From Candidatus Woesearchaeota archaeon (GTDB taxonomy: Archaea > Nanobdellota > Nanobdellia > Pacearchaeales > GW2011-AR1), in NCBI GenBank assembly GCA_964384965.1, contig CAYLLR010000002.1, forward strand, positions 1 to 40,080: a stretch of 40,080 bases of DNA, read 5' to 3'. How positions within the stretch are numbered: the first letter of the stretch is position 1; each line of letters begins with the position of its first letter. Of the stretch, positions 6,201 to 33,824 are shown piece by piece. The position numbers were made by a program, and so were the translations under genes. The notes below the pieces were generated by a model, which worked only from the letters and a program-made list of their open reading frames with translations, was not told where the DNA came from and did no database searches.

Positions 6201-7319
6201 TCATTGATTTTTTTCCAAAACGTAAATCATCCTCCCAACAATCTGGTTTTCTCTAAATTCGGGAAATCCTTTTCCAATAGGAAAATATCCCGTGTTAGAG
6301 CAAATTTTTTCTATGTTGCAATGAACTCTTCTTTTACCAATCCTAATATATGGAGAACTAAAAACAATTTTTCCAGAAATACTTTTTTTTAAATTATTAA
6401 TTGTCTTAACCATTAAAGACTCAAACTTTTTTAACATTTCTCGGGCTTTTTCTTCCGTCGGGATTTTTTTTAGAATTTCTCCCAGGTCAGGTTCGGTGAC
6501 TACTACGGAAACTTTTGGAATTTCAACATTCATTGAATCAGAATTAATGAGGGAATAATTTTTTTCTGAAAAGTTGAGCCATTGGAGGTTTTTCTTTGCA
6601 CCTTTAATTGCATCCTTGTCTTTATCAATTCCTATAACTTGAAAATTCTGCAGAAGTGCTTCTTGCAAAATTGTTCCAACACCACAAAAAGGGTCAAGCA
6701 AGAATTTTCGTTCGTCAACTTGTGAAAGATTTATCATTATCTTTGCTAACCGTGGGGAAATAGCCAAAGATTCCCGTCTTACAGGTTTTTCTATATCTCT
6801 TTTTTCAATGGAAGAATAATCACATTTCTCAATAATTTCTCCAAAGTAGGTAATTTTTTCCTTATCAAAGGCAAAATATTCTTTATTGATTAATTTTGAA
6901 GAGGGTTTCCTTGCGTTTTCCCCTCTCTGTAACTTCACATTTCCGCTAAGGTGTTTGAAAATAGCTTTTATTTTTTCTTTTTTAAATCTTCTCTTTAAAT
7001 AGTCTTGTATTTTTTCATAATTTTTCGAAAAATTCCAAATGGTGTAAGTTAGTTTATTTTTATTTCCGGAGTATAATATTCTCTTTTCAAGATTTCTTAT
7101 AATTTCTTTTTCTCCTCCAGAAGTCAAAATTTTTCCAATCGAGATAACTCCTCCAAAATTTTTGATTATTTTCTTTTCTATTGGTTTTTCTAAATCAATA
7201 AGCAAGGCATTTTTTCTAATTAAATAATTTAAAATTTTATTTTTAGAATTTTTAAAATAAGAAAAAACTTCTGCTTTTGATAGTTCGGGATTTCTCCCCA
7301 ATATAAATAAATATTTCAT
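6201..7319 (-). CDS. Trm11/Trm-G10-like RNA (guanine-N2) methyltransferase
   Basis: N-terminus MKYLFILGRNPELSKAEV is typical of Trm11-family N-domains. SAM motif I is LLDPFCGVGTILQEA. The motif IV position reads VVVTEPDLGE instead of the usual D/N-P-P-Y/F. The gene lies upstream of the L35Ae-L10e pair on the same strand. Confidence 0.6.
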   Translation of the reverse strand: MKYLFILGRNPELSKAEVFSYFKNSKNKILNYLIRKNALLIDLEKPIEKKIIKNFGGVISIGKILTSGGEKEIIRNLEKRILYSGNKNKLTYTIWNFSKNYEKIQDYLKRRFKKEKIKAIFKHLSGNVKLQRGENARKPSSKLINKEYFAFDKEKITYFGEIIEKCDYSSIEKRDIEKPVRRESLAISPRLAKIMINLSQVDERKFLLDPFCGVGTILQEALLQNFQVIGIDKDKDAIKGAKKNLQWLNFSEKNYSLINSDSMNVEIPKVSVVVTEPDLGEILKKIPTEEKAREMLKKFESLMVKTINNLKKSISGKIVFSSPYIRIGKRRVHCNIEKICSNTGYFPIGKGFPEFRENQIVGRMIYVLEKNQ

Positions 7320-7444
7320 ATAACATAAAAGAGGATGGTTGTTTTTAGAACTTTTGATTAAAAAATAATTTCAAATTATTTTTATTTAATAATTTATTTT
7401 CCTTAAATTTTGAAATCTAATCATACCAAGAATATTTTTTAATT

Positions 7445-9280
7445 CTAAAAAACAATTTCAAAAGTTCCATATTTCTTTTTCAGAATATCAAAAACTTTAG
7501 AGTTAATTTCTATATCCTTTTTTTCCTTTTGTTTTGCAACAGCTTTCTCAAGTTCTTCTGAATTAGAATTTTCAATTTTGTCGGTTATTTTTTTGATTGT
7601 ATTTTCTTCAAACAAAAATGTTTTTCCGTCAGCATTTATTAATTCAATAATCTTGTTTTTGAATTTGAGAGTCATTTTCCCTTTATTAATCGGAATCATT
7701 TCTTTCCTTTGAATAAATTCAATTAAATCTTTAATCAAAATTTCGGCATCTTTTCTTATCCTATCTATTTTATGAGAATCTGATTTTTTCTTTTTAAATT
7801 CTTTTTTGGATTTAATCACTTCTTTTAAAATTCTCGAATGTTGGTTTGTAAATTTGCCTTTTTTGACATATGATTTTTCAAATTCTTCAATTATTTTCTC
7901 TTGAGATTTGCTTTTTAGAATGGTTTTCATAAGACCCATAACATCTCCATAAATTCTTTCAATAGTTTTTTCTTGAAATTTTGCTTCAATCTCCTTTCGC
8001 AATTCCTTAAGTCTTTTAAGATAATTTTCAGTTTCAACCAAGAGCACATCAATCTCTTTTCCAGAAATTTCTTTTATTTTTTCATGCTCGTAATTCTTCC
8101 AAGTTTTTACAACCTTTTCCAAGAAATCAACATACTTTTTTTCTATCATTTTTGTATTTAAAAATGCTTTTTTGAATACTCCAACCAATTCTTTAGAAGT
8201 TGGGGGGGGAAACCCTCCAAGCATCAATATCGCTTGTGCAGGAGTTGTAACTCCCCAAAAAATATTTGTAAAAACATCACTCAAAAGAGTTTTTTTACTT
8301 CTTTGTATTACTCCATCGCCCATACTCATAAACATATCAATAGCTTCTGGGGATGGTTTTAATTTTCCCATTCTTAAAAGAGATTTCCAGGGCATAAATG
8401 TTCCTCTGTCGTAAAGTGGGACTCCATCACGAATGAAAGTAAACATTACAGGGTGAGCGTCTTTAACTGCATCCCAAAAATCAGTAAGAAGGTAGATTTG
8501 GGGCTCCAACCTATTTTTTACGCCTGCAATTTGGGTTGCCTCTGCAACATATTGATAGATTATCCCTCTAAGTCTTTCCAAAAGTTCTCTACGAGGCATT
8601 CTTTTAACATCGGTATCATTAATGATTACAAAAACATCTACATCGCTGGTTTTTATAGCATCACCCCTAACCAAACTTCCTCCTATAACATAACTTACCA
8701 CATATTTTTCAAATTTTTGTAAAACGAGAGATTTATGAATTTCAGAAACTCTCAACGCACCCAAAATTCCTTTGTCATACAAAGGGTAACTCATTGCAAT
8801 TGCCCCGGAGAGTTCAAATTTCTGGTCCATAGCAATTTCCCAAATTTCAGAAGGGGTCAAAACATGAACCCAAACTTTCTCCTTTGATTTTTGAATCTCT
8901 TTAATTATTTCTTGTTTAATTTTGAAAATTTCTTTAGATTTGTCCTCGGGAATAATTATTTCAATATGAACAAATTCTTTTGATTCTTCAGGTGCCTCTT
9001 CCTCTTCGATAAACTTTGGAATTGATTGGGGGGGAAGAATTCCTACAGCAAGAATATACTTAAATTTTTTAAGCACGAAATTTTTTAATTTTTCTATTTC
9101 TTTTTTCGTTTTTTCAAATTTTTTCTTTTCATCCTGAGGATTTTTAATTATTTTAGACTTTGAATATTTTAGATCCATTCCTGGGATGGAGCTTGAATTA
9201 GGTTCAACCATTATCTGAAAAATCTTTGGTTGTTTATAAAAGTTTGGTGAAAATTTGTTTTTATTTTGATAGAAAAACAT
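7445..9280 (-). CDS. large nucleotidyltransferase-domain protein (degenerate plus intact NTase modules, helical C-terminal region)
   Basis: Intact NTase motif IGGSLVRGDAIKTSDVDVFVIINDTD. An upstream segment (LAVGILPPQS...VHIEIIIPEDK) looks like a degenerate second NTase module. The downstream helical domain is paralogous to the 3090-4004 product. The start is uncertain; the ATG at 9211 (MVEPNSS) is plausible. Confidence 0.7.
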   Translation of the reverse strand: MFFYQNKNKFSPNFYKQPKIFQIMVEPNSSSIPGMDLKYSKSKIIKNPQDEKKKFEKTKKEIEKLKNFVLKKFKYILAVGILPPQSIPKFIEEEEAPEESKEFVHIEIIIPEDKSKEIFKIKQEIIKEIQKSKEKVWVHVLTPSEIWEIAMDQKFELSGAIAMSYPLYDKGILGALRVSEIHKSLVLQKFEKYVVSYVIGGSLVRGDAIKTSDVDVFVIINDTDVKRMPRRELLERLRGIIYQYVAEATQIAGVKNRLEPQIYLLTDFWDAVKDAHPVMFTFIRDGVPLYDRGTFMPWKSLLRMGKLKPSPEAIDMFMSMGDGVIQRSKKTLLSDVFTNIFWGVTTPAQAILMLGGFPPPTSKELVGVFKKAFLNTKMIEKKYVDFLEKVVKTWKNYEHEKIKEISGKEIDVLLVETENYLKRLKELRKEIEAKFQEKTIERIYGDVMGLMKTILKSKSQEKIIEEFEKSYVKKGKFTNQHSRILKEVIKSKKEFKKKKSDSHKIDRIRKDAEILIKDLIEFIQRKEMIPINKGKMTLKFKNKIIELINADGKTFLFEENTIKKITDKIENSNSEELEKAVAKQKEKKDIEINSKVFDILKKKYGTFEIVF

Positions 9281-9578
9281 CCACTTTTTTTAATAAAATA
9301 GAAAATTCTTAATATAATAATAAATTTAATTTTTTGAAAGGGATAAATTTTATTTTTTTCTATTTTCCGCGTTTCTTCAAAGTATCTTTTTGATTTTCTG
9401 CCCTCTTTTCGTTTTTTATAATAACTGCAAAGGGTTCTCTTGTCCAAGATTTTCGAACTATTTTAGGACCTTAAACACATTGTAATTGGAAATTTTAATT
9501 TTATTTGTATGAATTAAATTCCGTATGTTTTATCCATAAAATTAGTGAATAATTTTGGGGGGAGGATTTTAGTAAATA

Positions 9579-9649
9579 TGGACCCGGCAGGAATCGGACC
9601 TGCGCTTCCTCGGTGTAAACGAGGTGTTCTACCATTAGACTACGGGTCC
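9579..9649 (-). tRNA. tRNA-Val (anticodon TAC), atypical T-loop
   Basis: Manual fold of the reverse complement gives acceptor GGACCCG/CGGGTCC and anticodon stem CCTCG/CGAGG. The anticodon loop is TTTACAC and the T stem is GCAGG/CCTGC. Two deviations: the T-loop reads TCCGATT (C at position 55), and the D stem has a C12:A23 mismatch. No encoded CCA. Confidence 0.75.
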
Positions 9650-9856
9650 AGGTAATAAGAATCAGACTACTCACTATTTTAAAAAGGTTATTATTTCCAA
9701 ATACTTTTTCACAAATACTCTCCACAATTAATTCTTGAATATTCCTAAATCCAAAATTTTAGCATAACTTTAAGATTAATCTGTTTTATTTCCATATCTA
9801 TCGGTCGTCATTAGTATTCGCATAGTTTTTGATCAACTAATTTAAAAATTAAAATA

Positions 9857-9927
9857 TGCGCCTGCCGAGATTCGAACCCGGGCCACAACGTTGGCAACGT
9901 TGCATTCTACCACTAAACTACAAGCGC
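9857..9927 (-). tRNA. tRNA-Gly (anticodon GCC)
   Basis: Manual fold gives acceptor GCGCTTG/CAGGCGC and anticodon stem CAACG/CGTTG. The anticodon loop is TTGCCAA and the T arm is CCGGG-TTCGAAT-CTCGG. An AT-rich TATA-like TTATAAATA lies about 30 nt upstream on the minus strand. Confidence 0.85.
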
Positions 9928-10132
9928 CTAATTTAAAATAATAATTGATATTTATAATATTAATCTTTCTAATTCATTGTAATTTTTTACAAATTTTTTC
10001 CCAAATAATCTTTTCCATGTTTCTTCGAATAAGCATTTTCAATTTAGATAATCTTTTATTATAATTTTTATTTAAAAAATAATGCTTTTTTAAGATATAT
10101 AAATTTATATTTGCTTTTTAGTTAATTAGAGA

Positions 10133-10882
10133 ATGATTTTTGACGTTCATGCACATTTAAACTTTTTAAAAGAAAATAAATTAAAAGAGATTCAAAGAGA
10201 TAAAAAAATAAAAATCGTTATTTCCAATTCAATAGATTTGAAATCCATTAAAAAAAATTTGGAAATTTCAAAAAAATTTTCAAAAATAAAAACTTCTGCA
10301 GGACTTTATCCTTTGAAAAATTTATCTTTAAAAGAATATCTCCCATTTAAGAAATTAATTTTAAATAATAGAAAAAAAATAATTGCTCTTGGAGAGATTG
10401 GATTGGACTTGTACCATACAAGAGGAAATTTTGAATTACAAAAAACAATTTTTAAGAAACAATTAGATTTGGCAAAAAAATTGAACCTCCCTGTAATTAT
10501 TCATACAAGAAAAGCAGAAAAAGAGAGTTTAGAAATTTTGAAAAATTACAAAGATTTGAGAATGATCTTACATTGCTTCTCGGGGAATTTTAAGTTGGTT
10601 AAAGAGGCAATTAATCTGGGCTGTTTTTTTTCTATTCCGACGAATATTGTAAGAAATAAACACTTTCAAAAGATGGTTGGAGAAGTTCCAAAAACAAAAA
10701 TTTTAACCGAAACGGATACTCCCTTTCTCTCACCATTTAAAGAAAAACAAAATGAGCCATCTTTTATTAAAGAAACAATAAAAGAAATTTCAAAGATATG
10801 GAAAATTAATGGGGAAAAAGTTGAAAAAATAATTGAAGCAAATTTTATGGGAATTTTCGGGAATAATTTAAATTTAACTTAA
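10133..10882 (+). CDS. TatD-family metal-dependent hydrolase/DNase
   Basis: N-terminal MIFDVHAHLNF, then GEIGLDLYH, VIIHTR, HCFSG and ETDTPFLSP. These are the ordered TatD motifs. Confidence 0.85.
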   Translation: MIFDVHAHLNFLKENKLKEIQRDKKIKIVISNSIDLKSIKKNLEISKKFSKIKTSAGLYPLKNLSLKEYLPFKKLILNNRKKIIALGEIGLDLYHTRGNFELQKTIFKKQLDLAKKLNLPVIIHTRKAEKESLEILKNYKDLRMILHCFSGNFKLVKEAINLGCFFSIPTNIVRNKHFQKMVGEVPKTKILTETDTPFLSPFKEKQNEPSFIKETIKEISKIWKINGEKVEKIIEANFMGIFGNNLNLT

Positions 10883-15051: not shown

Positions 15052-15203
15052 CCATCCATAGCTCAATGGCAGAGCGCTTGGCTGTAGATAATCTAAGGTG
15101 GAGAGTCGCTGAACGCGATGACTATGAAACCCTAAAAGTCAAGAAACTTAATTTGGCACAAGCAGTGCCCGAGAGGTTCCCGGTTCGAATCCGGGTGGAT
15201 GGA
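15052..15203 (+). tRNA. tRNA-Tyr (anticodon GTA) interrupted by an approximately 80-nt intron
   Basis: Acceptor CCATCCA/TGGATGG, with C1:G72 as in the archaeal Tyr identity pair. D arm GCTC-AATGGCA-GAGC. Anticodon stem CTTGG (15077-81) pairs with CCGAG (15169-73), and the anticodon is GTA at 15084-86. T arm CCCGG-TTCGAAT-CCGGG. Confidence 0.85.
15088..15167 (+). other. tRNA-Tyr intron at canonical 37/38 position (bulge-helix-bulge)
   Basis: Central 4-bp helix: C82 T83 G84 T85 pairs with G165 A164 C163 G162. It is flanked by 3-nt bulges, A86 G87 | A88 and T166 G167 | C168, which place both splice sites. The intron-side helix is weak. Confidence 0.65.
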
Positions 15204-16997: not shown

Positions 16998-17912
16998 TTA
17001 ATCCGATATTTTTGTAAGGATTATCTGATTGTTTATTAAAGAGATTTCTTTATTTTTGGTTTTAACAAAAATCTTTAATTTTTCTATTTTTCTTTTTGAA
17101 ACCCATATGTTTTCAAGTTTAATACTCAGACCATATCCTATTTTTATATTTTTAAAATCAATTTTTTTAAGAATTTCTTTGTCTCCATAGATAATCAATT
17201 CGCCTTTTTCCGAATCACTCAAACCAATATTTCTGATTGAAATATTAATTCGCAGATATCTCCCTTTAATTTCTGCAGAAACATTTTCAATTTTTAAATC
17301 CGGATATGGTGGAAAAGAATACAACCTTCCTATTTCATTTAATAGATCATCTCCAAGAGTTTGCGAGCATTTAGTTACAGGATACATAATATTGTTTTTG
17401 TTTTTTGAATGATCAAATCCTAAGGCATGAAGCAATTCATGTATTTCAATATTTGGCCTCTCACAAGAAGATTCTCTTAAAAGGAGGATATTTCCTTTAA
17501 AGATAATATTAAAATTTTCACCAGAAATAATTTTGGTTGGACCTCCCTCGCCCGCAATGAAAAGTCCACTTTTTGAAGTTTTTGATTTCTCATCACAATT
17601 AACCTCTATTTCTTCTCTTTCCACGACGGGATAAAATTTAAGAAGGGTTAGGTTGCTAAGATAGTTAAATCCTTTAATCATTTCACTCTTTTTTTTCAGG
17701 GTACAATTCTCGTCAATTTTATAAGAAATGTTTGGATTTGGAAATCTCATATTCTTATAGAACTGCATTTTGGTAGAGGTGTTTTTTATATTGAAGTTCG
17801 GGTTTTTATTCACACCGAATCGAACCTCTTCGAATGGCAAAAACCAATAAATAAAAATTGAAATTATAAAAAATATGCTGATAAATCCAAAAAAAATTTT
17901 TTTCCAATCCAT
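16998..17912 (-). CDS. membrane-anchored metzincin (matrixin-like) zinc metalloprotease
   Basis: N-terminal TM FFGFISIFFIISIFIYWFL. Zinc site HELLHALGFDH (HExxHxxGxxH) followed by an IMYP Met-turn. The C-terminal beta-rich segment (LKIENVSAEIKGRYLRINISIRNIG) resembles CARDB-type domains. Confidence 0.75.
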   Translation of the reverse strand: MDWKKIFFGFISIFFIISIFIYWFLPFEEVRFGVNKNPNFNIKNTSTKMQFYKNMRFPNPNISYKIDENCTLKKKSEMIKGFNYLSNLTLLKFYPVVEREEIEVNCDEKSKTSKSGLFIAGEGGPTKIISGENFNIIFKGNILLLRESSCERPNIEIHELLHALGFDHSKNKNNIMYPVTKCSQTLGDDLLNEIGRLYSFPPYPDLKIENVSAEIKGRYLRINISIRNIGLSDSEKGELIIYGDKEILKKIDFKNIKIGYGLSIKLENIWVSKRKIEKLKIFVKTKNKEISLINNQIILTKISD

Positions 17913-18004
17913 ACCCTCATTAGTGAAAATTGTTATATAAAACTTATTAAATAGTTCTTTAAAAAGTTAACAATTTATATAAATAATTTAAGACTTATTT
18001 TTAT

Positions 18005-19216: not shown

Positions 19217-21115
19217 TTATTTTGGATTATCATTGCAATAAAAATTTTCCTCAATAAGTTCTTTTTTCATTTCCTTGTTAATGAAGTATGTATGATTTTT
19301 TCCAGAGTAAGTTAGATAAAGTTTGTTTTTAGCTCTTGAAATTGCGACGTAAAAAAGTCTAAGTTCCTCTTCTTCTTTGTCATATTCATACATTTTAATT
19401 TTTTCAATAATTGGGTGGTCTCCGGACTTACAGGGGAAGTTATTGTTTGTGCAACCCATTAAAAAAACAAGTTCGGCTTCAAGCCCTTTTATGGAATGAA
19501 TTGTAGAAAGAACAATCTCCCCTTTTTTTCTGAGAAATTTTTGAGAACCTTCTTCTTTTATACTATGAGGGATTCCTTCTTTAGAAAGAATCTTTGAAAA
19601 TTCTAAAAGTTTTTTATTTGTTCTGGACAAAACAAAAATTTCTTCACGTGAAATTTTGGAAGACAAAATTTTTTCCTTAATAAAATTAAATTCTAAATTT
19701 TCGTTAGAAAATTTGCAAAGTTTTAGAAATTTTTTTCCTTTGATGGTTGTTTCTAAATCCGGAAGTTTCATTTTTTTAATTGAAAGATTCATTAGTTTTA
19801 CAAGATGGTTATTGCTTCGATAGTTTTTTTTAAGGGTTATAATCTCACAACCAAAATATTTTTTTTGAAAATTTAAAATATATTTTACCTTAGAACCTCT
19901 CCAACCAAAAATTGATTGTCTGGGATCTCCAACACAAAAAAAGTTTTTTGAATTTAATAGATCTAAAAGTTCAACTTGTTCGGAGTTGACGTCCTGAAAT
20001 TCATCCACTAAGATATGGTCAAATTGGGGGATAAATTTAGGATACATTTTAAAAAAAGTAAGAACATCGTTTATCTGGTCAGAGTAAGTTCTTAACCCGT
20101 TTTCGAACATGTGTTTTTCCAAAAACTCCGTAATTTTTAAAATTAATTCCAAATTAGGATTTTTTTCTCTCGAAAAACTTTTTTTGAATTCTTCAAAACT
20201 TTTTTTTGTCGATTTAAAATATTCAAAAACTTCGAAACAATCCGAAACAAATAAATTTTGTAATTGATATAAATTTTTGTTTTTTTTCTGGCTTTCACTA
20301 AAATATTTATTAATTGCTTTTTGAATGTTTTCCCCAAAATTATCAAGTGCTCTTAAAATTGCGACCATTTTGTCTTGAAATGTGGCAACCCTAACTCTTC
20401 GACCATAGATTCTTCCCCCATTTTTTAAAAGAATTTTTTCACAAAAAGAATTAAATGTTTCGACAAATACTCCTACTCCCATCAACTCCAATCTTTTTTT
20501 CATCTCCTCTTTTGCTTTGCGAGTAAAAGTTATTGCTAAAATCTTTTCTGATTTTACCCTTCTCATTTTATTTAAAAATTCTATCCTTTTTGTCAGGACG
20601 GAAGTTTTTCCTGTTCCCGCTCCGGCAATACATAAAATTTTTTCTTTTGGAGAAATTATTGCTTTTTTTTGTTCCGGGTTAAATCCAGACAAAAAATTTT
20701 CCAATTCTTTAAATGCATAAATCTCTTCTTTGCTTATTTGTGTTTCAATTTTTGTATAATTTTCTGAAATTTTTTTAGAATTTAATTTTGGATTAATTAA
20801 TTCATTTACCCCCTTTTGACTAATTGACAAAACTTTTGCAAATTTATTAAAAACAGAATTTGAGATGGAAATAAGGTCATTAATTATTAAATTTTCAATA
20901 AGCTCTTTTATTTCTTCCTTGGATAAATGGGATAAAATTCCAAAATTATTTCTTTTAAACATTTTGTTTTTTTCTATTGATTTGTTTTTCATTTCTCCTA
21001 ATAAAAAATCAATCAAAAGGTTTTTTCCAATTGGGAAAGGAATTTCATTCAGACTTTTTAAGATAAATAAATAATCTTTGGATGTGTCTCTTTTATATTC
21101 TGGAATTTCCACCAT
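19217..21115 (-). CDS. UvrD/PcrA-like superfamily 1 DNA helicase with N-terminal winged-helix-like domain
   Basis: Q motif FNPEQKKAI, Walker A AGAGTGKTS, motif Ia AITFTRKAKEEM and motif II VDEFQDVN. Also GDPRQSIF, YRSN, TIHSIKGLE and motif VI LFYVAISRAKNKLYL. Confidence 0.85.
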   Translation of the reverse strand: MVEIPEYKRDTSKDYLFILKSLNEIPFPIGKNLLIDFLLGEMKNKSIEKNKMFKRNNFGILSHLSKEEIKELIENLIINDLISISNSVFNKFAKVLSISQKGVNELINPKLNSKKISENYTKIETQISKEEIYAFKELENFLSGFNPEQKKAIISPKEKILCIAGAGTGKTSVLTKRIEFLNKMRRVKSEKILAITFTRKAKEEMKKRLELMGVGVFVETFNSFCEKILLKNGGRIYGRRVRVATFQDKMVAILRALDNFGENIQKAINKYFSESQKKNKNLYQLQNLFVSDCFEVFEYFKSTKKSFEEFKKSFSREKNPNLELILKITEFLEKHMFENGLRTYSDQINDVLTFFKMYPKFIPQFDHILVDEFQDVNSEQVELLDLLNSKNFFCVGDPRQSIFGWRGSKVKYILNFQKKYFGCEIITLKKNYRSNNHLVKLMNLSIKKMKLPDLETTIKGKKFLKLCKFSNENLEFNFIKEKILSSKISREEIFVLSRTNKKLLEFSKILSKEGIPHSIKEEGSQKFLRKKGEIVLSTIHSIKGLEAELVFLMGCTNNNFPCKSGDHPIIEKIKMYEYDKEEEELRLFYVAISRAKNKLYLTYSGKNHTYFINKEMKKELIEENFYCNDNPK

Positions 21116-22692: not shown

Positions 22693-23721
22693 TTAAGGTC
22701 CCCCCCTCCTAATGTCCAAAGAAGTTTTTATTTTACCGGTTTCTACCCTTTTTCTTAAAAAATTTGGAAGTTTTTTGTATTTTGATTGTCCAAGATGATA
22801 ATATAAAATTGTTTGAGCTTCATTATTTGATTCTTTTTCAAGAGTTTTTAGAAAATATGCTCCTACAAGGATGTTTTCCTTAGGACTAAATTTAACTCCT
22901 TTTTTGAAATCATCCAAGGAAGAATTGCTCATAAAATAAAAAAAAGAGGAATCTTTTTCATTTTTTAGTTTTCTATAAAGTCCTGGGATAATCTTTTCAT
23001 TTATTTGAAAGAAATTTATATCTCCCGATGAACCTAAAATATAGGGATAGCCAGAAGATTCATTGGAAAGGATTGTTAAAAGAGAAGAAATTTCCAAATT
23101 ATTTTTTTTAGAAACTTGGTATAGAAATGGAAAATATTCCGCAGAGCGTAAAAATGTTAAAGCCATTGCTCTTTCTGAAGAGGTTTTTGCTTCTCTGGAA
23201 AATTTTTCCAACTTTTTAAGTTTAGAAATTCCTTTAAGGATTTCCTTTAAATACTCATTATGAAAATAGTTTCCATCATTAGCCAAATGCAACAACCCAT
23301 TATAAGATAAAATATTGTAATCTTGGATTTTTGATTTTTCCTTATATATTTTTTCATTTAGCCTTACAAAATCATTATAAATTTTTTGGAAATCGTATTC
23401 TCTTTTAGAAAGATTCTTTCCGGAATAATCAGAAATCATCTGGATAAGACTATCTTTGCTTTTCTTGGAGATTTTCTTCTTTTTCAAGGAAAAGTTCTCT
23501 TTTTTTTCTAAAGAATCCAAAAAATGATAACTTTTTGAATTTCCTTCCAAAACATTTATTGCTTTTATTCTTTCAATCATTAAAGAATTAAGCTCATAAT
23601 AAATAATCTTGTCTGGGGGTTTTATGCTATTTTTAACAAAGAGGGGATTTGAAAAAAAGGCACCAAAAAAGATCGCCCAGATAAATTTTTTCATTTTCAT
23701 TTTATATTTATAACTATTCAA
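22693..23721 (-). CDS. secreted protein with SLT-like (lytic transglycosylase/goose lysozyme) domain
   Basis: Signal-like N-terminus KKFIWAIFFGAFFSNPLF. NNLEISSLLTILSNESSGYPYILGSSGDINFFQI aligns position for position with the SLT signature (x-ES-xxx-P-xxxxxx-G-xxxxx-Q), including the catalytic Glu-Ser. VGAYFLK lies downstream. Confidence 0.5.
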   Translation of the reverse strand: MNSYKYKMKMKKFIWAIFFGAFFSNPLFVKNSIKPPDKIIYYELNSLMIERIKAINVLEGNSKSYHFLDSLEKKENFSLKKKKISKKSKDSLIQMISDYSGKNLSKREYDFQKIYNDFVRLNEKIYKEKSKIQDYNILSYNGLLHLANDGNYFHNEYLKEILKGISKLKKLEKFSREAKTSSERAMALTFLRSAEYFPFLYQVSKKNNLEISSLLTILSNESSGYPYILGSSGDINFFQINEKIIPGLYRKLKNEKDSSFFYFMSNSSLDDFKKGVKFSPKENILVGAYFLKTLEKESNNEAQTILYYHLGQSKYKKLPNFLRKRVETGKIKTSLDIRRGGP

Positions 23722-24711: not shown

Positions 24712-25911
24712 TTAATTTAAAACAAGCTCAACATTAAATCCAGCTAAATCTTTTTTTAACAAATTAAGAGATTCTTCTTTGTTTCTTTTTAATTTTTTTC
24801 GTCTTTTTTCTTCTTTGATTTTTTCTAATTTCAAATTTTCAATTTCCAATAGAATTTCTTTTATTTTTGGAACTAATCTTTTGGTTTCATCTTTTTTTAT
24901 TTTTAATTTATGTTTTTCTATTTCTTTTAGCTTAAAATCTATTTTTTTTATTTTTTCCATTATTTTTTCATTGTTTAATTTAGCTTCATCTAATAAATTG
25001 ATGATTTGTTTTCCTTTATTCCCTAAAAAAACATCACAAAAATTTTCTCGATACATTTTCACAACTTCCATCTGTTTTGGATATTTGTGAAAAAAATTGG
25101 CCAGACCTTTAAAATCAATAATTTGTTTTAATTCTAAAATACATTTTGGCAGTTCTAACTTTAAAGATTCCTCCTTTCTTTGACTATCCAAAAAATCCAA
25201 ATAATCTTGACTTTTTTTAATTTCTTCTATTCTCTGATTAAGAATTTCTTTTTCTTTTTCTTTTTCTTCTACTTTTTTATTCAAAAATAATTCTCTCTCA
25301 ACGGTTATAGCAAGAAGGTTATCGATTTCATGAATTTTTTGGAGTTCCAATTTAATTTGTGAGATTATATTGAAAAAATCAACAACGCTTTTATTCTCTT
25401 CATGTATCTTAGACAATTCTCTTGAAAAAGTTTTTATTCCCTTTTTTATGTTTGCCATTTCCTTTCCTATTAAAATTGTGGCTCTTTCGTAATTATTATG
25501 GGAGGCTTTATTAAAATCAAAAAAAATTTTGTCTGTTTTTTTTATGAATTCATTGAAATTATCTGTTTCAAGATTTTTTAAATTTTCTAAGAAATTTTTA
25601 ACCATTTCAATATAATTTTTTTTCCCATTATTTACAATCTCTCTCACATCCTCTTTTTCTTTTTTTTCTTTGACATTAAAATCTTCCAAAATTTTTATTT
25701 TTTTATTTAATTCACCCTCATGTATTTTAATTATTTCTTTAATCCTCGAGATTGTTTCTTTTTCTTTGGATTTATTTTCCTTCCTTTTTTTTTCAATCCA
25801 ATTTTCAATCTCAGGAAAAGCAAGCTTTTCAAGGATGTTTTTCTCAACTTTCTTTTCATTAGCGAATTTTTTAAACAAATCAAAGATTCCCATATATTTT
25901 TTTAGAAACAA
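24712..25911 (-). CDS. K/E-rich coiled-coil protein
   Basis: 399-aa ORF, strongly heptad-like and K/E/I/L-rich throughout. No enzymatic motif. Confidence 0.5.
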   Translation of the reverse strand: MFLKKYMGIFDLFKKFANEKKVEKNILEKLAFPEIENWIEKKRKENKSKEKETISRIKEIIKIHEGELNKKIKILEDFNVKEKKEKEDVREIVNNGKKNYIEMVKNFLENLKNLETDNFNEFIKKTDKIFFDFNKASHNNYERATILIGKEMANIKKGIKTFSRELSKIHEENKSVVDFFNIISQIKLELQKIHEIDNLLAITVERELFLNKKVEEKEKEKEILNQRIEEIKKSQDYLDFLDSQRKEESLKLELPKCILELKQIIDFKGLANFFHKYPKQMEVVKMYRENFCDVFLGNKGKQIINLLDEAKLNNEKIMEKIKKIDFKLKEIEKHKLKIKKDETKRLVPKIKEILLEIENLKLEKIKEEKRRKKLKRNKEESLNLLKKDLAGFNVELVLN

Positions 25912-26346
25912 AGATATTTAAATTAAACGTAAAAATCACAGATAAAAGATTTCATTTTAAAATGTTCTATAATTAACTTCTTAAGATTCCGAAGAATTAA
26001 GAAAATTCAATATCCTCCCAAATTTCTTGTTTGATTCTTAACTTCTCAAAATTACCTCCCTTACATATTTGTTATTCCAAAAGTGGGATAAAATTTAACT
26101 TTGAAATTATTTTTAACATCGCTTTAATTCGGAAGGTTCTTTACAATTATTTTTTTAAAATTTCAAAACTACAATATTTTTCAAATAGTTTGAGAATCTT
26201 TATCAATTGAATTTTGTCAATTCTTCCAATTTCGTCCTACTAATAAATTTTTTTATGAATTTAACCTAAAAATTTCTGGTAGGTTATATTTCGAGAAAAA
26301 TTGAGGAAAAAGTTTACACAATCAATTCAAAAAGAACCTCTAAAAA

Positions 26347-26361
26347 CGAAAAGTATAAATA
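26347..26361 (+). promoter_or_regulatory. BRE/TATA-like promoter for the small peptide ORF
   Basis: CGAAAAG followed by TATAAATA (26354-26361). The ATG at 26383 lies about 25 nt downstream of the box centre, consistent with a leaderless or short-leader archaeal transcript. The AT-rich background lowers specificity. Confidence 0.35.
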
Positions 26362-26382
26362 TGTCAAATAGTTAATGTTTTT

Positions 26383-26511
26383 ATGGAAAATGAACTAATT
26401 GTGGAAGTTGTGAATGGAGCATTGGTTAAACCAGAAGCGATGGATTCTGTTCCAGAGCCCCTATTGGGCCTTGATGCCTGTGGTTGTACGGGAAACTCTA
26501 ATTGCCTCTAA
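26383..26511 (+). CDS. candidate RiPP precursor peptide (42 aa, Cys-rich C-terminal core)
   Basis: Not in the supplied ORF track because it is under 61 aa. My translation: MENELIVEVVNGALVKPEAMDSVPEPLLGLDACGCTGNSNCL*. It is co-directional with the radical SAM/SPASM gene and ends 32 nt upstream of it. It is visibly G+C-richer than the flanking spacer and has a TATA box upstream. Confidence 0.55.
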   Translation: MENELIVEVVNGALVKPEAMDSVPEPLLGLDACGCTGNSNCL

Positions 26512-26543
26512 ACTGACCTCGATTTGGTTATCCTTTAAATAGA

Positions 26544-27818
26544 ATGTATAAAGAAAGTTCGTACAACAGATTTTTTTTTGAAAAAGATTCTATTTTCTTA
26601 TTTAATTCTTTAAGCAAGGCGTGTCTTAAAGTTAGAAAGGAAAATTTAGAAAAGATAAAAAAAATATTAAAAGAAAAAATTTCTTGCAAGGGTAATGATA
26701 GAATTAATCAAAAGATACTAATAGACAATGGATTTATTATTCCGGAGGAGACGAATGAACTTGAAATTCTTGAGCATTTATATAAATCAAACTATTTTTC
26801 TACAGACAAGATTGCCATTGCGCTTGTTCCAACCCTGAAATGTAATTTTAAATGTCCCTATTGTTTTGAGGCAAAATCTAGAAAGGAAAATCGTGAATCA
26901 AAAGACTATTTTGAAGTTTTAAGAAAATTTTCCGATAAAAACTTTAAAAATAAAAAAAGGGTTCATATCGGATTATTCGGGGGAGAACCCCTTTTGAAAA
27001 AGAACCAATTGTTTTCTTACCTAGAACATCTTTTAAAACAAAGTAAGGAATATGGGTATAAATTTAGTGTGAATATTGTTACAAATGGCTTTTTTTTAGA
27101 CGAGGAAACGGTTAAAAAATTAATTAAATATAATTGTATTTCAATTCAAGTTACATTGGACGGGGGGGAAAAGACACATAATACATTGAGGGTATTACAT
27201 AACGGGGGAGAAACGTTTGATAAAATTGTTAGTAATTTTAAAAAAGCGATAAAATATTCAATTAAAATTAATTCTCCCACCCAATTTATTTTAAGAATAA
27301 ATTTACTAAACCAAAAAATAGAAAATCTCAAATCAGTTTTTGAAGCATTTAATAAAAAAGAAAGGAATAAAATAAAAATTCTTTTTAGGCCGGTTTATTC
27401 AACTAGTCAATTTAAAAAAACAAATTGCAATACAATTCATGATTTAAAAAAATTTTATGATAAATCAAATGAATACGGATATGGGGTAGCCAGAAATAAT
27501 TATTATTTGCAATATTGTGAATCTGACGGCGGAATTAATTTTTTTTATATAACTCCCGACTTAAAAATCTGGAAATGCATAAACGAATCATCAAAAACAG
27601 CAAATATTGGATACCTAAATAGGCAAGGAAAAATAGAATTGGATTTGACAAATATTGCCACTTGGACTGAAAAATCCGATCCTTTTAAAGATGGAAAATG
27701 CAGAAAATGTTATTATCTTCCAATATGTTATGGGGGTTGTCCCCTTTATCGTATTAAAACAGGAAAACGAAAATGCATATCTAAAGATATGGCTATAGCC
27801 CCTTATTTTTATCCTTAA
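26544..27818 (+). CDS. radical SAM/SPASM-domain peptide maturase
   Basis: CNFKCPYC (CX3CX2C), GLFGGEPLL and VTLDGGEKTHNTLR. C-terminal SPASM cysteines YCESDGG, WKC and CRKCYYLPICYGGC (CX2CX5CX3C). The ~90-aa N-terminal extension (YNRFFFEKDSIFLFNSLSKACLKV) is typical of peptide-modifying members. Confidence 0.85.
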   Translation: MYKESSYNRFFFEKDSIFLFNSLSKACLKVRKENLEKIKKILKEKISCKGNDRINQKILIDNGFIIPEETNELEILEHLYKSNYFSTDKIAIALVPTLKCNFKCPYCFEAKSRKENRESKDYFEVLRKFSDKNFKNKKRVHIGLFGGEPLLKKNQLFSYLEHLLKQSKEYGYKFSVNIVTNGFFLDEETVKKLIKYNCISIQVTLDGGEKTHNTLRVLHNGGETFDKIVSNFKKAIKYSIKINSPTQFILRINLLNQKIENLKSVFEAFNKKERNKIKILFRPVYSTSQFKKTNCNTIHDLKKFYDKSNEYGYGVARNNYYLQYCESDGGINFFYITPDLKIWKCINESSKTANIGYLNRQGKIELDLTNIATWTEKSDPFKDGKCRKCYYLPICYGGCPLYRIKTGKRKCISKDMAIAPYFYP

Positions 27819-27838
27819 CTATTTCTTCAAAAAAAATA

Positions 27839-27910
27839 CGCCCACGCCGGGAGTCGAACCCGGGTTTCCAGCGCGACAGGCTAGTGTCATAGCCGTTAGA
27901 CCACGTGGGC
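27839..27910 (-). tRNA. tRNA-Asp (anticodon GTC)
   Basis: Manual fold gives acceptor GCCCACG/CGTGGGC and anticodon stem CTAGC/GCTGG. The anticodon loop is CTGTCGC and the T arm is CCGGG-TTCGACT-CCCGG. Length is 72 nt including the discriminator. Confidence 0.85.
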
Positions 27911-28050
27911 AAGTCACAAACTTTCATACCGATTTTTATTTTTAAATCTTGTGATATCCTTAAAAGTTAATTTTAGGAAAAATGATAAAACAAAAAGTAT
28001 TTAAACTTAAAATAACTCTAAAATATGTTCAATTTCGGTTGAACATTGAA

Positions 28051-28090
28051 GGTAAAAATTTTCGGATTTTTACCTTCTTTTTTATTTTGG
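28051..28090 (+). terminator. 8-bp hairpin followed by T-rich tract
   Basis: GGTAAAAA-TTTTCGGA-TTTTTACC (28051-28074) followed by TTCTTTTTTATTTT. A second hairpin, GTTCAA-TTTCGG-TTGAAC, lies at 28027-28044. Confidence 0.3.
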
Positions 28091-28187
28091 TTTATATTTT
28101 TTTCAGGATAAGTGTTTGAGTTGAGAATTATTTCGAATAATCCTTTAATAAGGATATATTCAACGACGGCTTTTTATTTTCTTAACA

Positions 28188-29474
28188 CTATTTTTTAGGT
28201 TCAATCTTTTTTTTACCATTCATATATGGTTGAAGAACTTTCGGAATTAAAATAGAACCATCTTTTTGTTGATTATTTTCCATAATCGCAACCAGTGCCC
28301 TGGAAGTAGCAATGACCGTGTTGTTTAGGGTGTGAGCAAAATATTTTTTCCCTTTGTGTTCAATTCTTATTCCTAATCGTCTAGCTTGAGCCGATTCCAT
28401 ATTTGTTAAAGAAGTAACTTCAAAATATTCTTTTCTTCTTGGACTCCAACACTCCAAATCTAAACTTTTAGCTTTCAAATCGGCTAAATCTCCACTACAA
28501 CATTCTAAAATTCTAAATGGGAGTTCCAAGGATTTAAATAGCTCAATAGAATATTCCAACATTTTAGTATACCATTTATAAGAATCTTCTGGATTACAAA
28601 TCACAATCATTTCCTGTTTATTAAATTGATGAGTTCTATAAATTCCTTTTTCATCGACGCCATGAGATCCAATTTCTTTCCTAAAGCACATAGAATAAGC
28701 AGTTTGTTTAATGGGCAAATCTTTTCCATTCAAAGTTTTTTTAATAAATTGGCCAATCAAAGGATGTTCTGAGGTGGCAATCATATAAAGATTTTCATTA
28801 TCAATTTTATAACTCATTGCATCAATTTCTTCATTTGAGTAAACCCCCTTCAAAATTTCTTCTCTAATCATTAATGGAGGTTCTATATATTCAAATCCTT
28901 TTTTAATCATAAAATCTCTCGCATAATTAATTAAAGCCATATTCAATAAAGCCAAATCCCCTTTCATAAAGTAAAACCCTTTACCAGAAATGCTCCCTGA
29001 AAGGTCAAAATCCAAAACTCCCAATTTTTCCCCCAATTCGACGTGACTTTTGACAGGAAAGTTAAATTTTTTTATCTTTCCAAACCTTTGTATTTCAACA
29101 TTTTCAGTTTCATCTTTACCAATTGGAACGGATTCATGAATCATGTTCGGAATTTTAGTCATAATTTCATGAATCTTTTCTTCAAATTTTTTTCTTTTTA
29201 ATTTACTTTCCTCAATTTTTTCGGGAATTTTTTTTGCTCTTTTTTTCAATTCCTCTGCCTTTTTTTTATCTTTTAATTTTATTGCCTCGTTAATTTTTCT
29301 TGAAATTTTATTTCTTTCAGACCTTAAATTGTCCTCTTCATATTTTAGTTTTCTCCACTTTTCATCATATTCCAAAACCTCATCTACCAATGGAATTTTC
29401 TCTTTCTGAAATTTCTTTTTTATATTCTCTTTGACTAATTCAGGATTTTCACGAATCAAATTAATGTCAATCAT
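28188..29474 (-). CDS. serS: seryl-tRNA synthetase
   Basis: MIDINLIRENPELVKENIKKK, followed by a long coiled-coil arm and a class II core (FRKEIGSHG, YRTHQFNKQE, GSILIPKVLQPY). This is the canonical SerRS layout. Confidence 0.95.
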   Translation of the reverse strand: MIDINLIRENPELVKENIKKKFQKEKIPLVDEVLEYDEKWRKLKYEEDNLRSERNKISRKINEAIKLKDKKKAEELKKRAKKIPEKIEESKLKRKKFEEKIHEIMTKIPNMIHESVPIGKDETENVEIQRFGKIKKFNFPVKSHVELGEKLGVLDFDLSGSISGKGFYFMKGDLALLNMALINYARDFMIKKGFEYIEPPLMIREEILKGVYSNEEIDAMSYKIDNENLYMIATSEHPLIGQFIKKTLNGKDLPIKQTAYSMCFRKEIGSHGVDEKGIYRTHQFNKQEMIVICNPEDSYKWYTKMLEYSIELFKSLELPFRILECCSGDLADLKAKSLDLECWSPRRKEYFEVTSLTNMESAQARRLGIRIEHKGKKYFAHTLNNTVIATSRALVAIMENNQQKDGSILIPKVLQPYMNGKKKIEPKK

Positions 29475-33518: not shown

Positions 33519-33824
33519 AATTAAAGAGGGAAGAATAAAAAGAAGACTAAATCTTAAAAAATTTAGAAAAAGCAATTGAATGACTTTAGGAAATCCCTTG
33601 ATAATAGAACAAGCTATGTTAAAAATAGGTTCAAAAGAAAATATTATTTTATAGAATTTAATGAGAAATATCTAAAGATGAAATGAGGGGGCATTTAGAG
33701 TGAATCTATTAAAGAAAGATTTGAAAAAACAATCAGGATGAAAATTTTGGAATTGTATCAAAATCAAAAGAAAGAAAATAATTCTCAAAACCCTTATAAA
33801 TACTTCTTTATTATATAAGTTAAG

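Follow-up and report, generated by a model that had tools for sequence, protein, structure and literature searches.

Among the described systems, SCIFF (thermocellin) is the precedent for the locus reported here. It is typically a bare cassette of two genes, one for a radical-SAM (rSAM) enzyme and one for a peptide, and its maturase CteB joins a Cys sulfur to a Thr carbon. We know of no exporter for SCIFF. Secreted RiPPs usually have an accessory set, namely an exporter and a C39-peptidase transporter. Three further families, TIGR04463, CefB and Clo7bot, have to our knowledge no biochemically characterized member or product, so there is no chemistry to borrow from them. Predicted rSAM RiPP clusters are reported to be widespread in archaea, DPANN included, and none has been characterized (PMC12144867). 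We know of no rSAM-modified peptide from any archaeon that has been characterized, and a sequence-only reading of the present DNA had likewise called archaeal rSAM RiPPs essentially uncharacterized.

We have analyzed a 40,080-nt stretch of DNA, called the window throughout, in which a 42-aa ORF precedes a 424-aa radical-SAM/SPASM enzyme. We conclude that the two constitute a new, uncurated precursor/maturase family of the radical-SAM-modified Cys-rich RiPP class. Our best explanation is that the locus is a two-gene RiPP module, consisting of a precursor and a radical-SAM maturase, in which a thioether cross-link is the most likely modification, and we give this explanation as a whole a probability of about 0.6. 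The small ORF and the enzyme are a precursor/maturase pair, a point on which we are highly confident. The odds for cysteine-based thioether chemistry, argued by analogy, are about even or slightly better. The sequence-only reading had proposed a two-gene rSAM/SPASM peptide system, and this is supported by co-occurrence and by the NCBIfam grouping of the enzyme.

The host is archaeal, DPANN-like and Pacearchaeota-like. The window encodes a thermosome, aIF-2/5B and an intron-containing tRNA-Tyr, and the best named matches of the thermosome are from Pacearchaeota/Nanoarchaeota, all of which bears out the archaeal origin that had been proposed. The cassette abuts the 3' end of a tRNA-Asp gene (27838-27911, minus strand). 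This position, together with integrases upstream of the cassette in two related loci (L001 and L161), suggested an element integrated at the tRNA, a candidate that we rejected. No repeat of the tRNA-Asp sequence of at least 14 nt is present within the window, where only 13-nt matches from the A/T-rich spacer beside the tRNA were found, and the only direct repeats in the window are AT-rich low-complexity matches. The G+C content of the maturase gene (27.5%) is close to that of the window (29.3%). Nothing here points to a recent insertion. Genes for an exporter or a leader peptidase are missing beside the cassette, both in the window, as had been noted, and in six annotated archaeal loci. For the archaeal members, the data therefore do not support a product that is secreted and freed of its leader. 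No sulfatase or cofactor gene lies beside the cassette, and the window contains no sulfatase.

The precursor gene (26383..26511, plus strand) encodes the 42-aa peptide MENELIVEVVNGALVKPEAMDSVPEPLLGLDACGCTGNSNCL and ends 32 nt before the 424-aa ORF. Its G+C content is 0.49 at 26400-26499, compared with 0.20-0.27 in the flanks (23% in the spacer). Its coordinates and its G+C enrichment are thus as the sequence-only reading had given them. Relative to the precursor of L161, 11 codons differ synonymously and 12 non-synonymously, and in the core region, PEPLLGLDACGCTGN, the closest relative (79% identical) differs by 8 synonymous changes and 1 conservative replacement. Another 42-aa ORF overlaps the gene in a different frame (26414-26542); the synonymous pattern favors the 26383 frame. 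A profile search with the peptide against 5.8 billion sequences returned about 40 protein clusters at E<=1e-3, and overall 40-97 peptide clusters and about 90 enzyme clusters were available for comparison. The peptide has no match in Pfam and none among the NCBIfam models at E<=1. The ORF had been called unannotated, which does not hold everywhere, since an identical 42-aa protein (P0124) is already in a public protein collection and gene callers predicted the ORF in L161-L163.

Conservation of the peptide was assessed in an alignment of 19 precursors (A2) and in 60 further family peptides, and it is bipartite, with a variable stretch between a conserved motif near the N-terminus and a Cys core at the C-terminus, so that the leader/core layout read from this one peptide extends to the family. 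The N-terminal leader motif, I6-VEVVNG-A13 (26398..26421, plus strand), follows the family consensus [IVL]-[IV]-[NK]-x-A, and we propose that it is the recognition sequence for the RRE-like domain of the enzyme. The C-terminal core, L30-DACGCTGNSNC-L42 (26470..26508, plus strand), follows the family motif [L/R]-D-A-C-x-C-T-G-N-x(0-2)-C. Its three Cys, C33, C35 and C41, are invariant, with T36 conserved at 90% or more; across the 19 precursors of A2, no residue of the peptide other than these Cys is fully invariant. Because many homologues stop exactly at the third Cys (e.g., ...LDACGCTGNGLC), we place the C-terminus of the core there.

Upstream of the precursor gene is a BRE/TATA-type element, CGAAAAG-TATAAATA-T (26347..26362, plus strand), which can be read directly and probably acts as the promoter. 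TATAAATA occupies 26354-26361, is preceded by CGAAAAG and lies 21 nt from the precursor ATG. The element had been recognized before, at a stated distance of about 25 nt. The 21 nt imply that the transcript has no leader or almost none. All 16 nt of the element, CGAAAAGTATAAATAT, recur unchanged in L161 and L162, the closest relatives, despite diverged flanking DNA. There are 11 copies of TATAAATA in the window, against 5.2 expected, and 4 of these precede a gene start by 22-30 nt (26383, 18005, 33825 and tRNA-Gly). The 32-nt spacer between precursor and maturase genes (26512..26543, plus strand) has no significant RNA structure. An attenuator or terminator hairpin was considered at this position and rejected, its fold energy being no better than that of shuffled sequences (z 0.69). 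The length of the spacer varies among relatives (66 nt in L161), and the two genes are presumably co-transcribed.

The maturase (424 aa; 26544..27818, plus strand) is identified by matches in Pfam, NCBIfam and the PDB and by its AF2 model (pLDDT 92.8). It belongs to the radical SAM superfamily, with a Pfam Radical_SAM (PF04055) score of 72.5 bits against a gathering cut-off of 29.5, a Fer4_12 score of 33.4 bits and a CX3CX2C motif. This [4Fe-4S] motif, C100-NFK-C104-PY-C107 (26841..26864, plus strand), is invariant in 36 family members, and in the SAM-binding GGEPLL motif (residues 146-151; 26979..26996, plus strand) G146, G147, E148, P149 and L150 are invariant; both motifs had been located correctly from the sequence. 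A SPASM auxiliary-cluster region with seven conserved Cys follows (27516..27776, plus strand). C325, C345, C386, C389, C395, C399 and C411 are either invariant or conserved to at least 90% in alignment A1 of the 36 family members, and the CX2CX5CX3C segment (27699-27740) reads C386-RK-C389-YYLPI-C395-YGG-C399. In HMM alignments this region matches the SPASM regions in CteB and anSME. Pfam's model for SPASM, PF13186, gives no match to the enzyme at E<=1, and it is carried by only 1 of the 120 homologues listed (P0115); evidently, it is insensitive for this clade. The SPASM assignment made earlier therefore draws its support from the motif and its conservation and from how the region aligns with CteB and anSME, and not from Pfam.

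Residues 1-85 of the enzyme (26544..26798, plus strand) form an N-terminal domain with the predicted fold beta-beta-beta-alpha-alpha-(beta)-alpha. Three strands and three helices are present both in the full AF2 model and when the domain is modeled in isolation (pLDDT 89-96; isolated domain 88.8). Its top Foldseek matches are almost all RRE-containing RiPP proteins, including McbB, TbiB1, MccB, ThcOx, CteB, SuiB and the PbtF RRE, with weak E-values (0.02-0.7). Profile searches of PDB sequences and Pfam with the N-terminal 92 residues gave nothing meaningful for PqqD/RRE at the sequence level. We thus describe the domain as RRE-like at the level of the predicted fold.

The highest NCBIfam scores of the enzyme are all to RiPP maturases, namely TIGR04463 (194.8 bits; curated cut-off 525), CefB (NF038107; 175.4, cut-off 600) and Clo7bot (TIGR04334; 163.1, cut-off 600). 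These scores are about one third of the cut-offs or less, and the enzyme is therefore not a member of these families. No curated NCBIfam cut-off is reached. The scores to the PapB model (88.6 bits; cut-off 340), the anaerobic sulfatase maturase TIGR03942 (76.5; cut-off 349) and the SCIFF maturase TIGR03974 (63.6; cut-off 425) place the enzyme outside these families too, and only the rSAM core (residues 97-280) matches prokaryotic viperin (PADLOC 58.6 bits; NCBIfam 59.5 bits, cut-off 180), outside which it likewise falls. The enzyme thus groups with maturases of Cys-rich RiPPs and not with the sulfatase or PQQ/mycofactocin/heme families, the comparison on which the original proposal had been made to depend. 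By sequence and by fold, the best PDB relative is CteB (5wgg/5why; E 8e-29, fold E 1e-17, TM 0.65-0.69). The structural or sequence relatives also include TigE (8VPO), SuiB, anSME and the epimerase EpeE.

The pairing of peptide and enzyme is consistent across genomes. Of 24 loci with an enzyme of at least 32% identity, 22 encode a homologue of the small ORF next to it, as against 0 of 148 loci whose rSAM/SPASM enzymes are more distant; with enzymes of 31% identity or less, a DACxCT-type peptide is never present. The two loci without the peptide are L171, where only 150 nt of upstream sequence are covered, and L086 (enzyme 32% identical), which has no detectable family peptide upstream and a different small Cys-containing ORF downstream. 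In a neighbor-joining tree the enzyme clades match the core subtypes CTGN, LDACQCTDP and NQCxCTD, and the archaeal enzymes are one clade nested among bacterial ones. The co-occurrence at orthologous maturases that had been suggested as a check extends over four archaeal lineages and several bacterial phyla. The module is present in Pacearchaeota/Nanoarchaeota, Methanoperedens, Methanothrix and Thermoplasmatota. The family is not specifically archaeal; its hosts comprise several archaeal phyla as well as gut or environmental bacteria, with abundant members in the human gut, and a Lachnospiraceae-type peptide of the human gut (P0137) was found on 320 contigs.

The genomic settings of the cassette are diverse. 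In the bacterial loci L170 and L171 an ABC exporter is encoded directly downstream, and L170 also has a C39-peptidase ABC transporter. Variable or mobile surroundings are seen in L001 and L161 (integrases), L167 (restriction-modification genes), L169 (a conjugative element) and L175/176 (a Schlafen/AlbA_2 protein and a transposase). In L173/174 the cassette is flanked by UvrD helicases, and the window encodes another UvrD helicase, which is GajB-like, about 5 kb from the cassette. Membership in a defense system was considered and rejected, as PADLOC gives only a generic match of the rSAM core to pVip. A viral origin was likewise rejected: among the IMG/VR matches listed, the best relatives of the enzyme are 27-29% identical and none is a family member. 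The back-translated core motif has ten exact matches on viral contigs, all without a nearby enzyme and without a leader, and these are thus chance matches.

Based on these findings, we suggest the following mechanism. Transcription from the archaeal promoter would yield a short transcript carrying the 42-aa precursor and the 424-aa enzyme. The N-terminal RRE-like domain would bind the leader motif and so bring the core, D-A-C-x-C-T-G-N-x-x-C, into the active site, where 5'-deoxyadenosyl radical chemistry, together with two SPASM auxiliary clusters, would install at least one intramolecular cross-link. We favor sulfur-to-carbon thioether bridges from the invariant Cys as the most likely cross-links, and the leading candidates for the acceptor would be the Thr and the Asn/Asp after it, in analogy to CteB, NxxcB and PapB, which join Cys to Thr, Asn and Asp, respectively. 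Removal of the leader and export may follow; in the archaea these steps would need unlinked components, or they may be absent altogether.

Alternative explanations concern whether the ORF is a gene at all, what the enzyme acts on, which reaction it performs and where the product works. A 42-codon ORF that arose by chance between genes would fit the short length and the lack of a matching Pfam or NCBIfam family, but not the conservation over about 40-97 protein clusters, the conserved promoter element, the high G+C content inside a spacer of 23% G+C or the strict linkage to one enzyme clade. This reading has practically no chance of being correct, and it is already refuted by the synonymous substitution pattern in the frame, the profile search and the co-occurrence. 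Very improbable too is an enzyme that, like the anSME or PQQ/mycofactocin/heme types, acts on a distant protein or cofactor, with the small ORF only a co-conserved regulatory or leader peptide. Weak generic matches of the rSAM core, with anSME (76.5 bits) and with maturases for quinohemoproteins and tungsten cofactors, point in this direction; yet the anSME and cofactor scores are far under their cut-offs and far under the RiPP-maturase scores, and sulfatase or cofactor genes are missing from the neighborhood. Moreover, what is conserved in the peptide is the Cys-rich core at its C-terminus, which varies together with the enzyme clade, and the RRE-like domain predicted in the enzyme is absent from anSME.

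More serious, though still unlikely, is the possibility that the same precursor/maturase pair performs radical chemistry other than thioether formation, such as a C-C or C-O cross-link, epimerization, anSME-like oxidation of a Cys C-beta or cyclopropanation. The three invariant Cys would then be disulfide or metal ligands in the product, or ligands of an auxiliary cluster during catalysis. rSAM/SPASM maturases of the same fold catalyze many reactions, and among the relatives are TigE (methyl-cyclopropylglycine), SuiB (Lys-Trp C-C), anSME and EpeE; since TigE, a C-C-forming cyclopropyl synthase, is one of the closest solved relatives, the fold cannot fix the chemistry. The core also has invariant or near-invariant Asp, Ala, Thr, Gly and Asn. 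On the other side, Cys-rich substrates are common to all the closest curated families, CteB as the nearest solved enzyme is a thioether synthase, and no peptide residue other than the three Cys is fully invariant. Compatible with either chemistry, and in our estimate a little less probable again, is that the modified peptide acts inside the cell, possibly without losing its leader, and is a small factor for redox reactions or metal binding or else belongs to a mobile conflict or defense module. Such a role would explain the bare two-gene cassette in archaea, and it agrees with the lack of a linked exporter or protease in the window and the six archaeal loci, with the frequent variable or mobile surroundings and with the UvrD helicases described above. 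SCIFF, a widespread two-gene rSAM/peptide pair, likewise has no exporter that we know of. Several bacterial members nevertheless have ABC exporters directly downstream, one with a C39-peptidase transporter; the only PADLOC match is generic, no family member is on a viral contig among the matches listed, and bacteriocin genes are also common in mobile regions. We retain the two-gene module with a probable thioether cross-link as our preferred explanation.

The finding turns an anonymous prediction into a defined family, with a 42-aa substrate and a 424-aa enzyme that are small enough for direct co-expression and a sharply conserved core of 9-12 residues that shows where the modification should be sought. 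If the chemistry is a new cross-link, an enzyme class would be added, and if the archaeal product works without export, this would bear on the role of small modified peptides in genome-reduced symbionts. As an ordinary thioether bacteriocin, it would be one more ranthipeptide or sactipeptide family, of routine interest. Beyond this, we speculate that the core carries an undescribed pattern of cross-links, for example a very small bicyclic thioether knot with Thr and Asn/Asp as acceptors, that the DPANN product does its work without a protease or exporter of its own, be it in the cell with the leader attached or at the interface with a host cell, and that the module entered the archaea from bacteria a single time, later reaching at least four of their lineages. 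We consider this combination unlikely. Our literature search on TIGR04463, Clo7bot and Cys-every-fifth found no relevant paper, and the core-motif strings had zero matches in the main texts of freely accessible papers, which the search covered; the family may have been described earlier in a genome-mining atlas.

Among the characterized systems, the family is most similar to CteB/SCIFF of Clostridium thermocellum (5WGG/5WHY; TIGR03974, peptide TIGR03973). Both have an rSAM/SPASM enzyme and a short Cys-rich precursor directly upstream of it, the N-terminal RRE of CteB would correspond to the domain that is RRE-like by predicted fold here, and the Cys and Thr that are joined by CteB are also the invariant or near-invariant residues of the core here. 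They differ in that identity to CteB is only about 18% in the structural alignment, in that the SCIFF precursor has a six-Cys pattern whereas the precursor here has 3 Cys in a DACxCTGNxxC core and a different leader motif, and in that the present distribution includes archaea. TIGR04463 (rSAM_vs_C_rich), CefB ('Cys-every-fifth') and Clo7bot align with almost the whole enzyme, its N-terminal domain included, and each is paired with short Cys-rich peptides. The precursors of the Clo7bot-like loci L006 and L007 start with M-[KR]-Y-I-[VI]-K, which is similar to the M-[KE]-[IV]-I-[KN] of this family. PapB (freyrasin, Cys-Asp) and NxxcB (Cys-Asn) are also rSAM/SPASM enzymes and make small thioether rings with an Asp or Asn a few residues from the Cys; in the core here, Asp, Asn and Thr are all within three residues of a Cys. 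Their substrates have repeated CxxxD or NxxC units, whereas the family here has a single compact motif. Finally, anSME (4K36-4K39; TIGR03942) aligns through its rSAM core and SPASM region over residues 99-402 (TM 0.55-0.63) and also acts on Cys, as we propose for the present enzyme; it differs in having neither an N-terminal RRE domain nor an adjacent peptide gene.

We conclude, with a probability of about 0.9, that the 42-aa peptide and the neighbouring 424-aa rSAM/SPASM enzyme are a true precursor/maturase pair. Judged by its conservation, the small ORF (26383-26511, +; 42 codons, encoding MENELIVEVVNGALVKPEAMDSVPEPLLGLDACGCTGNSNCL) is a gene. It ends 32 nt before the co-directional enzyme ORF (26544-27818, +), and its G+C content is 0.49, against 0.20-0.27 in the flanking spacer. 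Relatives of the enzyme were collected from the protein database, and their DNA from genomes, metagenomes and assemblies. The family consists of 410-440-aa proteins, with identities from 79% down to about 33%, after which bit scores fall to about 180 (about 29% identity). Every close relative has an upstream small ORF with the same terminal motif. The peptide is MENEIIMEVVNEALVKPKATNFFPEPLLGVDACGCTGNKTCQ in the near kin of the cassette (loci L161-163), ...MKVINEAVVKPDTIELTPTRRLGLDACGCTGNGSCN in a Nanoarchaeota MAG (L001), MEDESIIEIINEAVIKTEATELILTQKLILDACTCTGNCPKY in a Methanoperedens MAG (L166), ...LILDACACTGNCPEN in a Methanothrix MAG (L002), ...SLDACGCTGNSFC in a Thermoplasmatota MAG (L167) and ...LDACTCTGNCNS in Muribaculaceae (L003). 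It reads ...CLDACQCTDP[DE]xC... in Lachnospiraceae and gut metagenomes (L004, L083, L084) and ...NQCxC[TS]DxxCxC in L005, L087 and L169.

A profile of 19 peptides was compared with the six-frame translation of 172 loci. Of the 24 loci with an enzyme of at least 32% identity, 22 have the peptide (21 upstream and co-directional, one divergent); no significant match came from the other 148, in which the rSAM/SPASM enzyme is more distant. The sequence-only reading stood or fell with the small ORF being kept beside orthologous enzymes, and it is kept there. The two misses are L171, where the sequence reaches only 150 nt upstream, and L086. In L086 the family enzyme (757-1986, +; 32% identity) has intact upstream sequence without the family peptide and is followed closely by a different small ORF (2041-2157, +) with the ending ...ISCKGNCGC. 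Compared with the 79%-identical relative, 11 codons of the ORF differ synonymously and 12 non-synonymously; the stretch P24-N38 (PEPLLGLDACGCTGN) has 8 synonymous differences and 1 conservative one (Leu to Val). At the nucleotide level, identity is 0.73-0.87 over the bulk of the ORF and 0.27-0.50 in the spacer that lies farther upstream. Searched against 5.8 billion sequences, the peptide profile matches about 40 protein clusters at E<=1e-3, a number that rises to 97 at E<=10; all are unnamed or 'hypothetical', and the motif is carried by all 60 family sequences inspected out of the profile matches. The peptide P0137 (L084, 3790-3915, +) is a LDACQCTDPESCQYD-type precursor found on 320 contigs, the longest of 176 kb. 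Since it is so widespread in human-gut assemblies, a culturable Lachnospiraceae member would offer the simplest access to the natural product.

In the precursor alignment C33, C35 and C41 are invariant, and at least 90% of the sequences have T36. The core consensus is [L/R]-D-A-C-x-C-T-G-N-x(0-2)-C, and in many family precursors the third Cys is the exact C-terminal end. A second conserved block, [IVL]-[IV]-[NK]-x-A, lies at the extreme N-terminus, and the middle part varies in length and sequence. Read from the alignment, this is the usual RiPP leader/core architecture, as had been proposed for the 42-aa peptide.

The putative promoter box TATAAATA (26354-26361, +) follows CGAAAAG and ends 21 nt short of the precursor ATG. 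We read it as a promoter on two independent grounds: L161 and L162, the nearest relatives, share the 16-nt element CGAAAAGTATAAATAT unchanged while the DNA around it has diverged, and the octamer recurs before gene starts. The window has 11 copies versus 5.2 expected. Four lie 22-30 nt 5' of gene starts: those of the precursor ORF, ORF 18005 (box 17978-17985, +), PEP synthase 33825 (33795-33802, +) and tRNA-Gly (9949-9956, -). This spacing is the pattern expected of leaderless archaeal transcripts, and it suggests that such transcripts are common in this genome. The ORF, enzyme motifs, G+C rise and promoter box of the sequence-only reading are all present as described.

The enzyme has the rSAM cluster motif C100-NFK-C104-PY-C107, the GGE motif G146-GEPLL and the SPASM motif C386-RK-C389-YYLPI-C395-YGG-C399. 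Pfam matches Radical_SAM (72.5 bits) and Fer4_12, and the Pfam SPASM model finds no match. The seven-Cys SPASM pattern is invariant or nearly so among 36 members and aligns with the SPASM regions of CteB and anSME. The best NCBIfam matches are TIGR04463 (194.8 bits, cut-off 525), CefB (175.4, cut-off 600) and Clo7bot (163.1, cut-off 600), followed by the geopeptide maturase (135.5); all are peptide maturases of Cys-rich substrates. Characterised PapB (88.6 bits), anSME (76.5) and the SCIFF maturase (63.6) score far under their cut-offs. A sulfatase-maturase identity is disfavoured by these scores. Because all NCBIfam scores are under cut-off, the enzyme is, by these profile comparisons, a peptide-maturase-type rSAM/SPASM protein outside every curated family.

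Among solved structures, the thioether synthase CteB is the closest relative by profile (E 8e-29) as well as by fold (Foldseek E 1e-17, TM 0.65-0.69, with an AF2 model of pLDDT 92.8); SuiB, anSME, ChlB and TigE come next. The fold does not fix the reaction, because TigE is a cyclopropyl synthase. By analogy with CteB, we consider thioether formation an even bet or slightly better. Residues 1-85 are modelled as three strands and three helices, and the isolated domain model has a pLDDT of 88.8. Sequence searches give no PqqD or RRE match for this N-terminal region. Its top Foldseek matches are almost all RRE-bearing RiPP proteins (McbB, TbiB1 with leader, MccB, ThcOx, CteB, SuiB and the PbtF RRE), at weak E values of 0.02-0.7. 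The modelled domain is likely an RRE.

We suggest that precursor and maturase would be expressed from a leaderless-type transcript, and that the RRE-like domain would bind the N-terminal leader motif. The rSAM centre would take a hydrogen atom from a core residue, and a Cys thiolate, possibly on auxiliary cluster I, would close the thioether ring. In the CteB structure a Cys thiolate is reportedly bound at auxiliary cluster I. In the core, C-x-C-T is invariant and Asn/Asp stands two residues further on, so that the simplest proposal would be links from Cys to Thr, or from Cys to Asn/Asp, spanning three residues.

The gene content of the window is archaeal: among its products are a thermosome subunit (721 bits with the equivalog model), aIF-2/5B and ribosomal protein L10e. 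Its tRNA-Tyr(GTA) gene (15052-15203, +; Rfam 50.8 bits) is interrupted at position 37/38 by an 80-nt intron; ARAGORN found this tRNA with introns allowed and missed it by default. An intron-containing tRNA at the canonical position is an archaeal hallmark. Among named thermosomes, the closest come from Candidatus Pacearchaeota (81% identity) and from Nanoarchaeota MAGs (71-77%). Together with the G+C content of 29.3%, these features support well the earlier guess of a reduced DPANN-type host.

The flanks of the cassette are unrelated to peptide maturation. Directly upstream is an orphan 399-aa Lys/Glu-rich protein, probably coiled-coil (24712-25911, -), for which neither Pfam nor PADLOC has a match; tRNA-Asp and seryl-tRNA synthetase follow downstream. 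A terminator-like 13-bp stem-loop with a T-tract (28048-28077, +), between tRNA-Asp and the serS 3' end, is the strongest such site in the scanned 25900-28200. As anticipated, no leader protease or exporter adjoins the cassette: the 40-kb window has no ABC transporter, and the six annotated archaeal loci (L161-L168) have no exporter or peptidase. The sole peptidase in the window, about 9 kb away, is a zincin-type metallopeptidase (16998-17912, -; weak Matrixin and Astacin matches), a speculative, unlinked candidate for leader removal. Among the bacterial members, an ABC exporter lies directly downstream in L170 and L171, and L170 also has a C39-peptidase ABC transporter. L172 has ABC ATPases and a second rSAM gene directly downstream (6389-7801). 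In the Methanothrix MAG, a convergent 613-aa second rSAM/SPASM protein (L002, 1766-3607, -) lies 86 nt past the maturase stop. In an abundant bacterial lineage (L173/L174), whose peptide P0178 occurs on 75 contigs, the genes after the maturase encode a PP2C phosphatase and a kinase of the APH type (8451-10195, +); the kinase could act on the invariant core Thr. UvrD helicases flank that cassette on both sides. The window itself encodes a 632-aa protein (19217-21115, -) in which a UvrD-type helicase is fused to an N-terminal RQC domain; PADLOC matches it strongly to Gabija GajB models (up to 203 bits). It also encodes a 342-aa lytic transglycosylase (SLT) protein (22693-23721, -), a peptidoglycan-cleaving domain in a DPANN-type archaeon without peptidoglycan, whose target could be a neighbouring or host bacterium.

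The neighbour-joining tree groups the enzymes by core subtype. All the archaeal ones form one clade within the bacterial ones, and those of different archaeal phyla are 56-66% identical, which suggests, from a tree without support values, a bacterial origin by transfer and then spread among archaea. Variable or mobile DNA is a frequent setting of the cassette, with integrases, restriction-modification genes, a transposase or a conjugative element nearby, and the cassette appears to be carried by mobile elements. In each of the two closest archaeal relatives (L001, 671-1489, +; L161, 301-1431, +) a tyrosine recombinase/integrase gene sits immediately upstream, and a relaxase and coupling protein lie near the cassette in a bacterial genome (L169, 238-2546, -). 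Recent insertion in the window was considered and rejected, there being no att-like repeat or compositional anomaly.

According to a 2025 survey (PMC12144867), predictions of rSAM RiPP clusters are widespread among archaea, DPANN included, with none yet characterised. Within the main texts of the open-access literature, we found no mention of the core motif and no relevant paper on the nearest NCBIfam families. The cassette is a useful, very tractable lead, in which specialists would find little surprise. The module is like the CteB/SCIFF system in its mode of working, but the enzyme fails the SCIFF maturase cut-off and the precursor has its own motif. It is likewise similar in mode of working to the TIGR04463, CefB and Clo7bot systems, though it misses each curated cut-off and again has its own precursor motif. 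On these sequence comparisons, with every curated membership cut-off failed and a conserved precursor motif of its own, we rate the module as a new family of a known kind.
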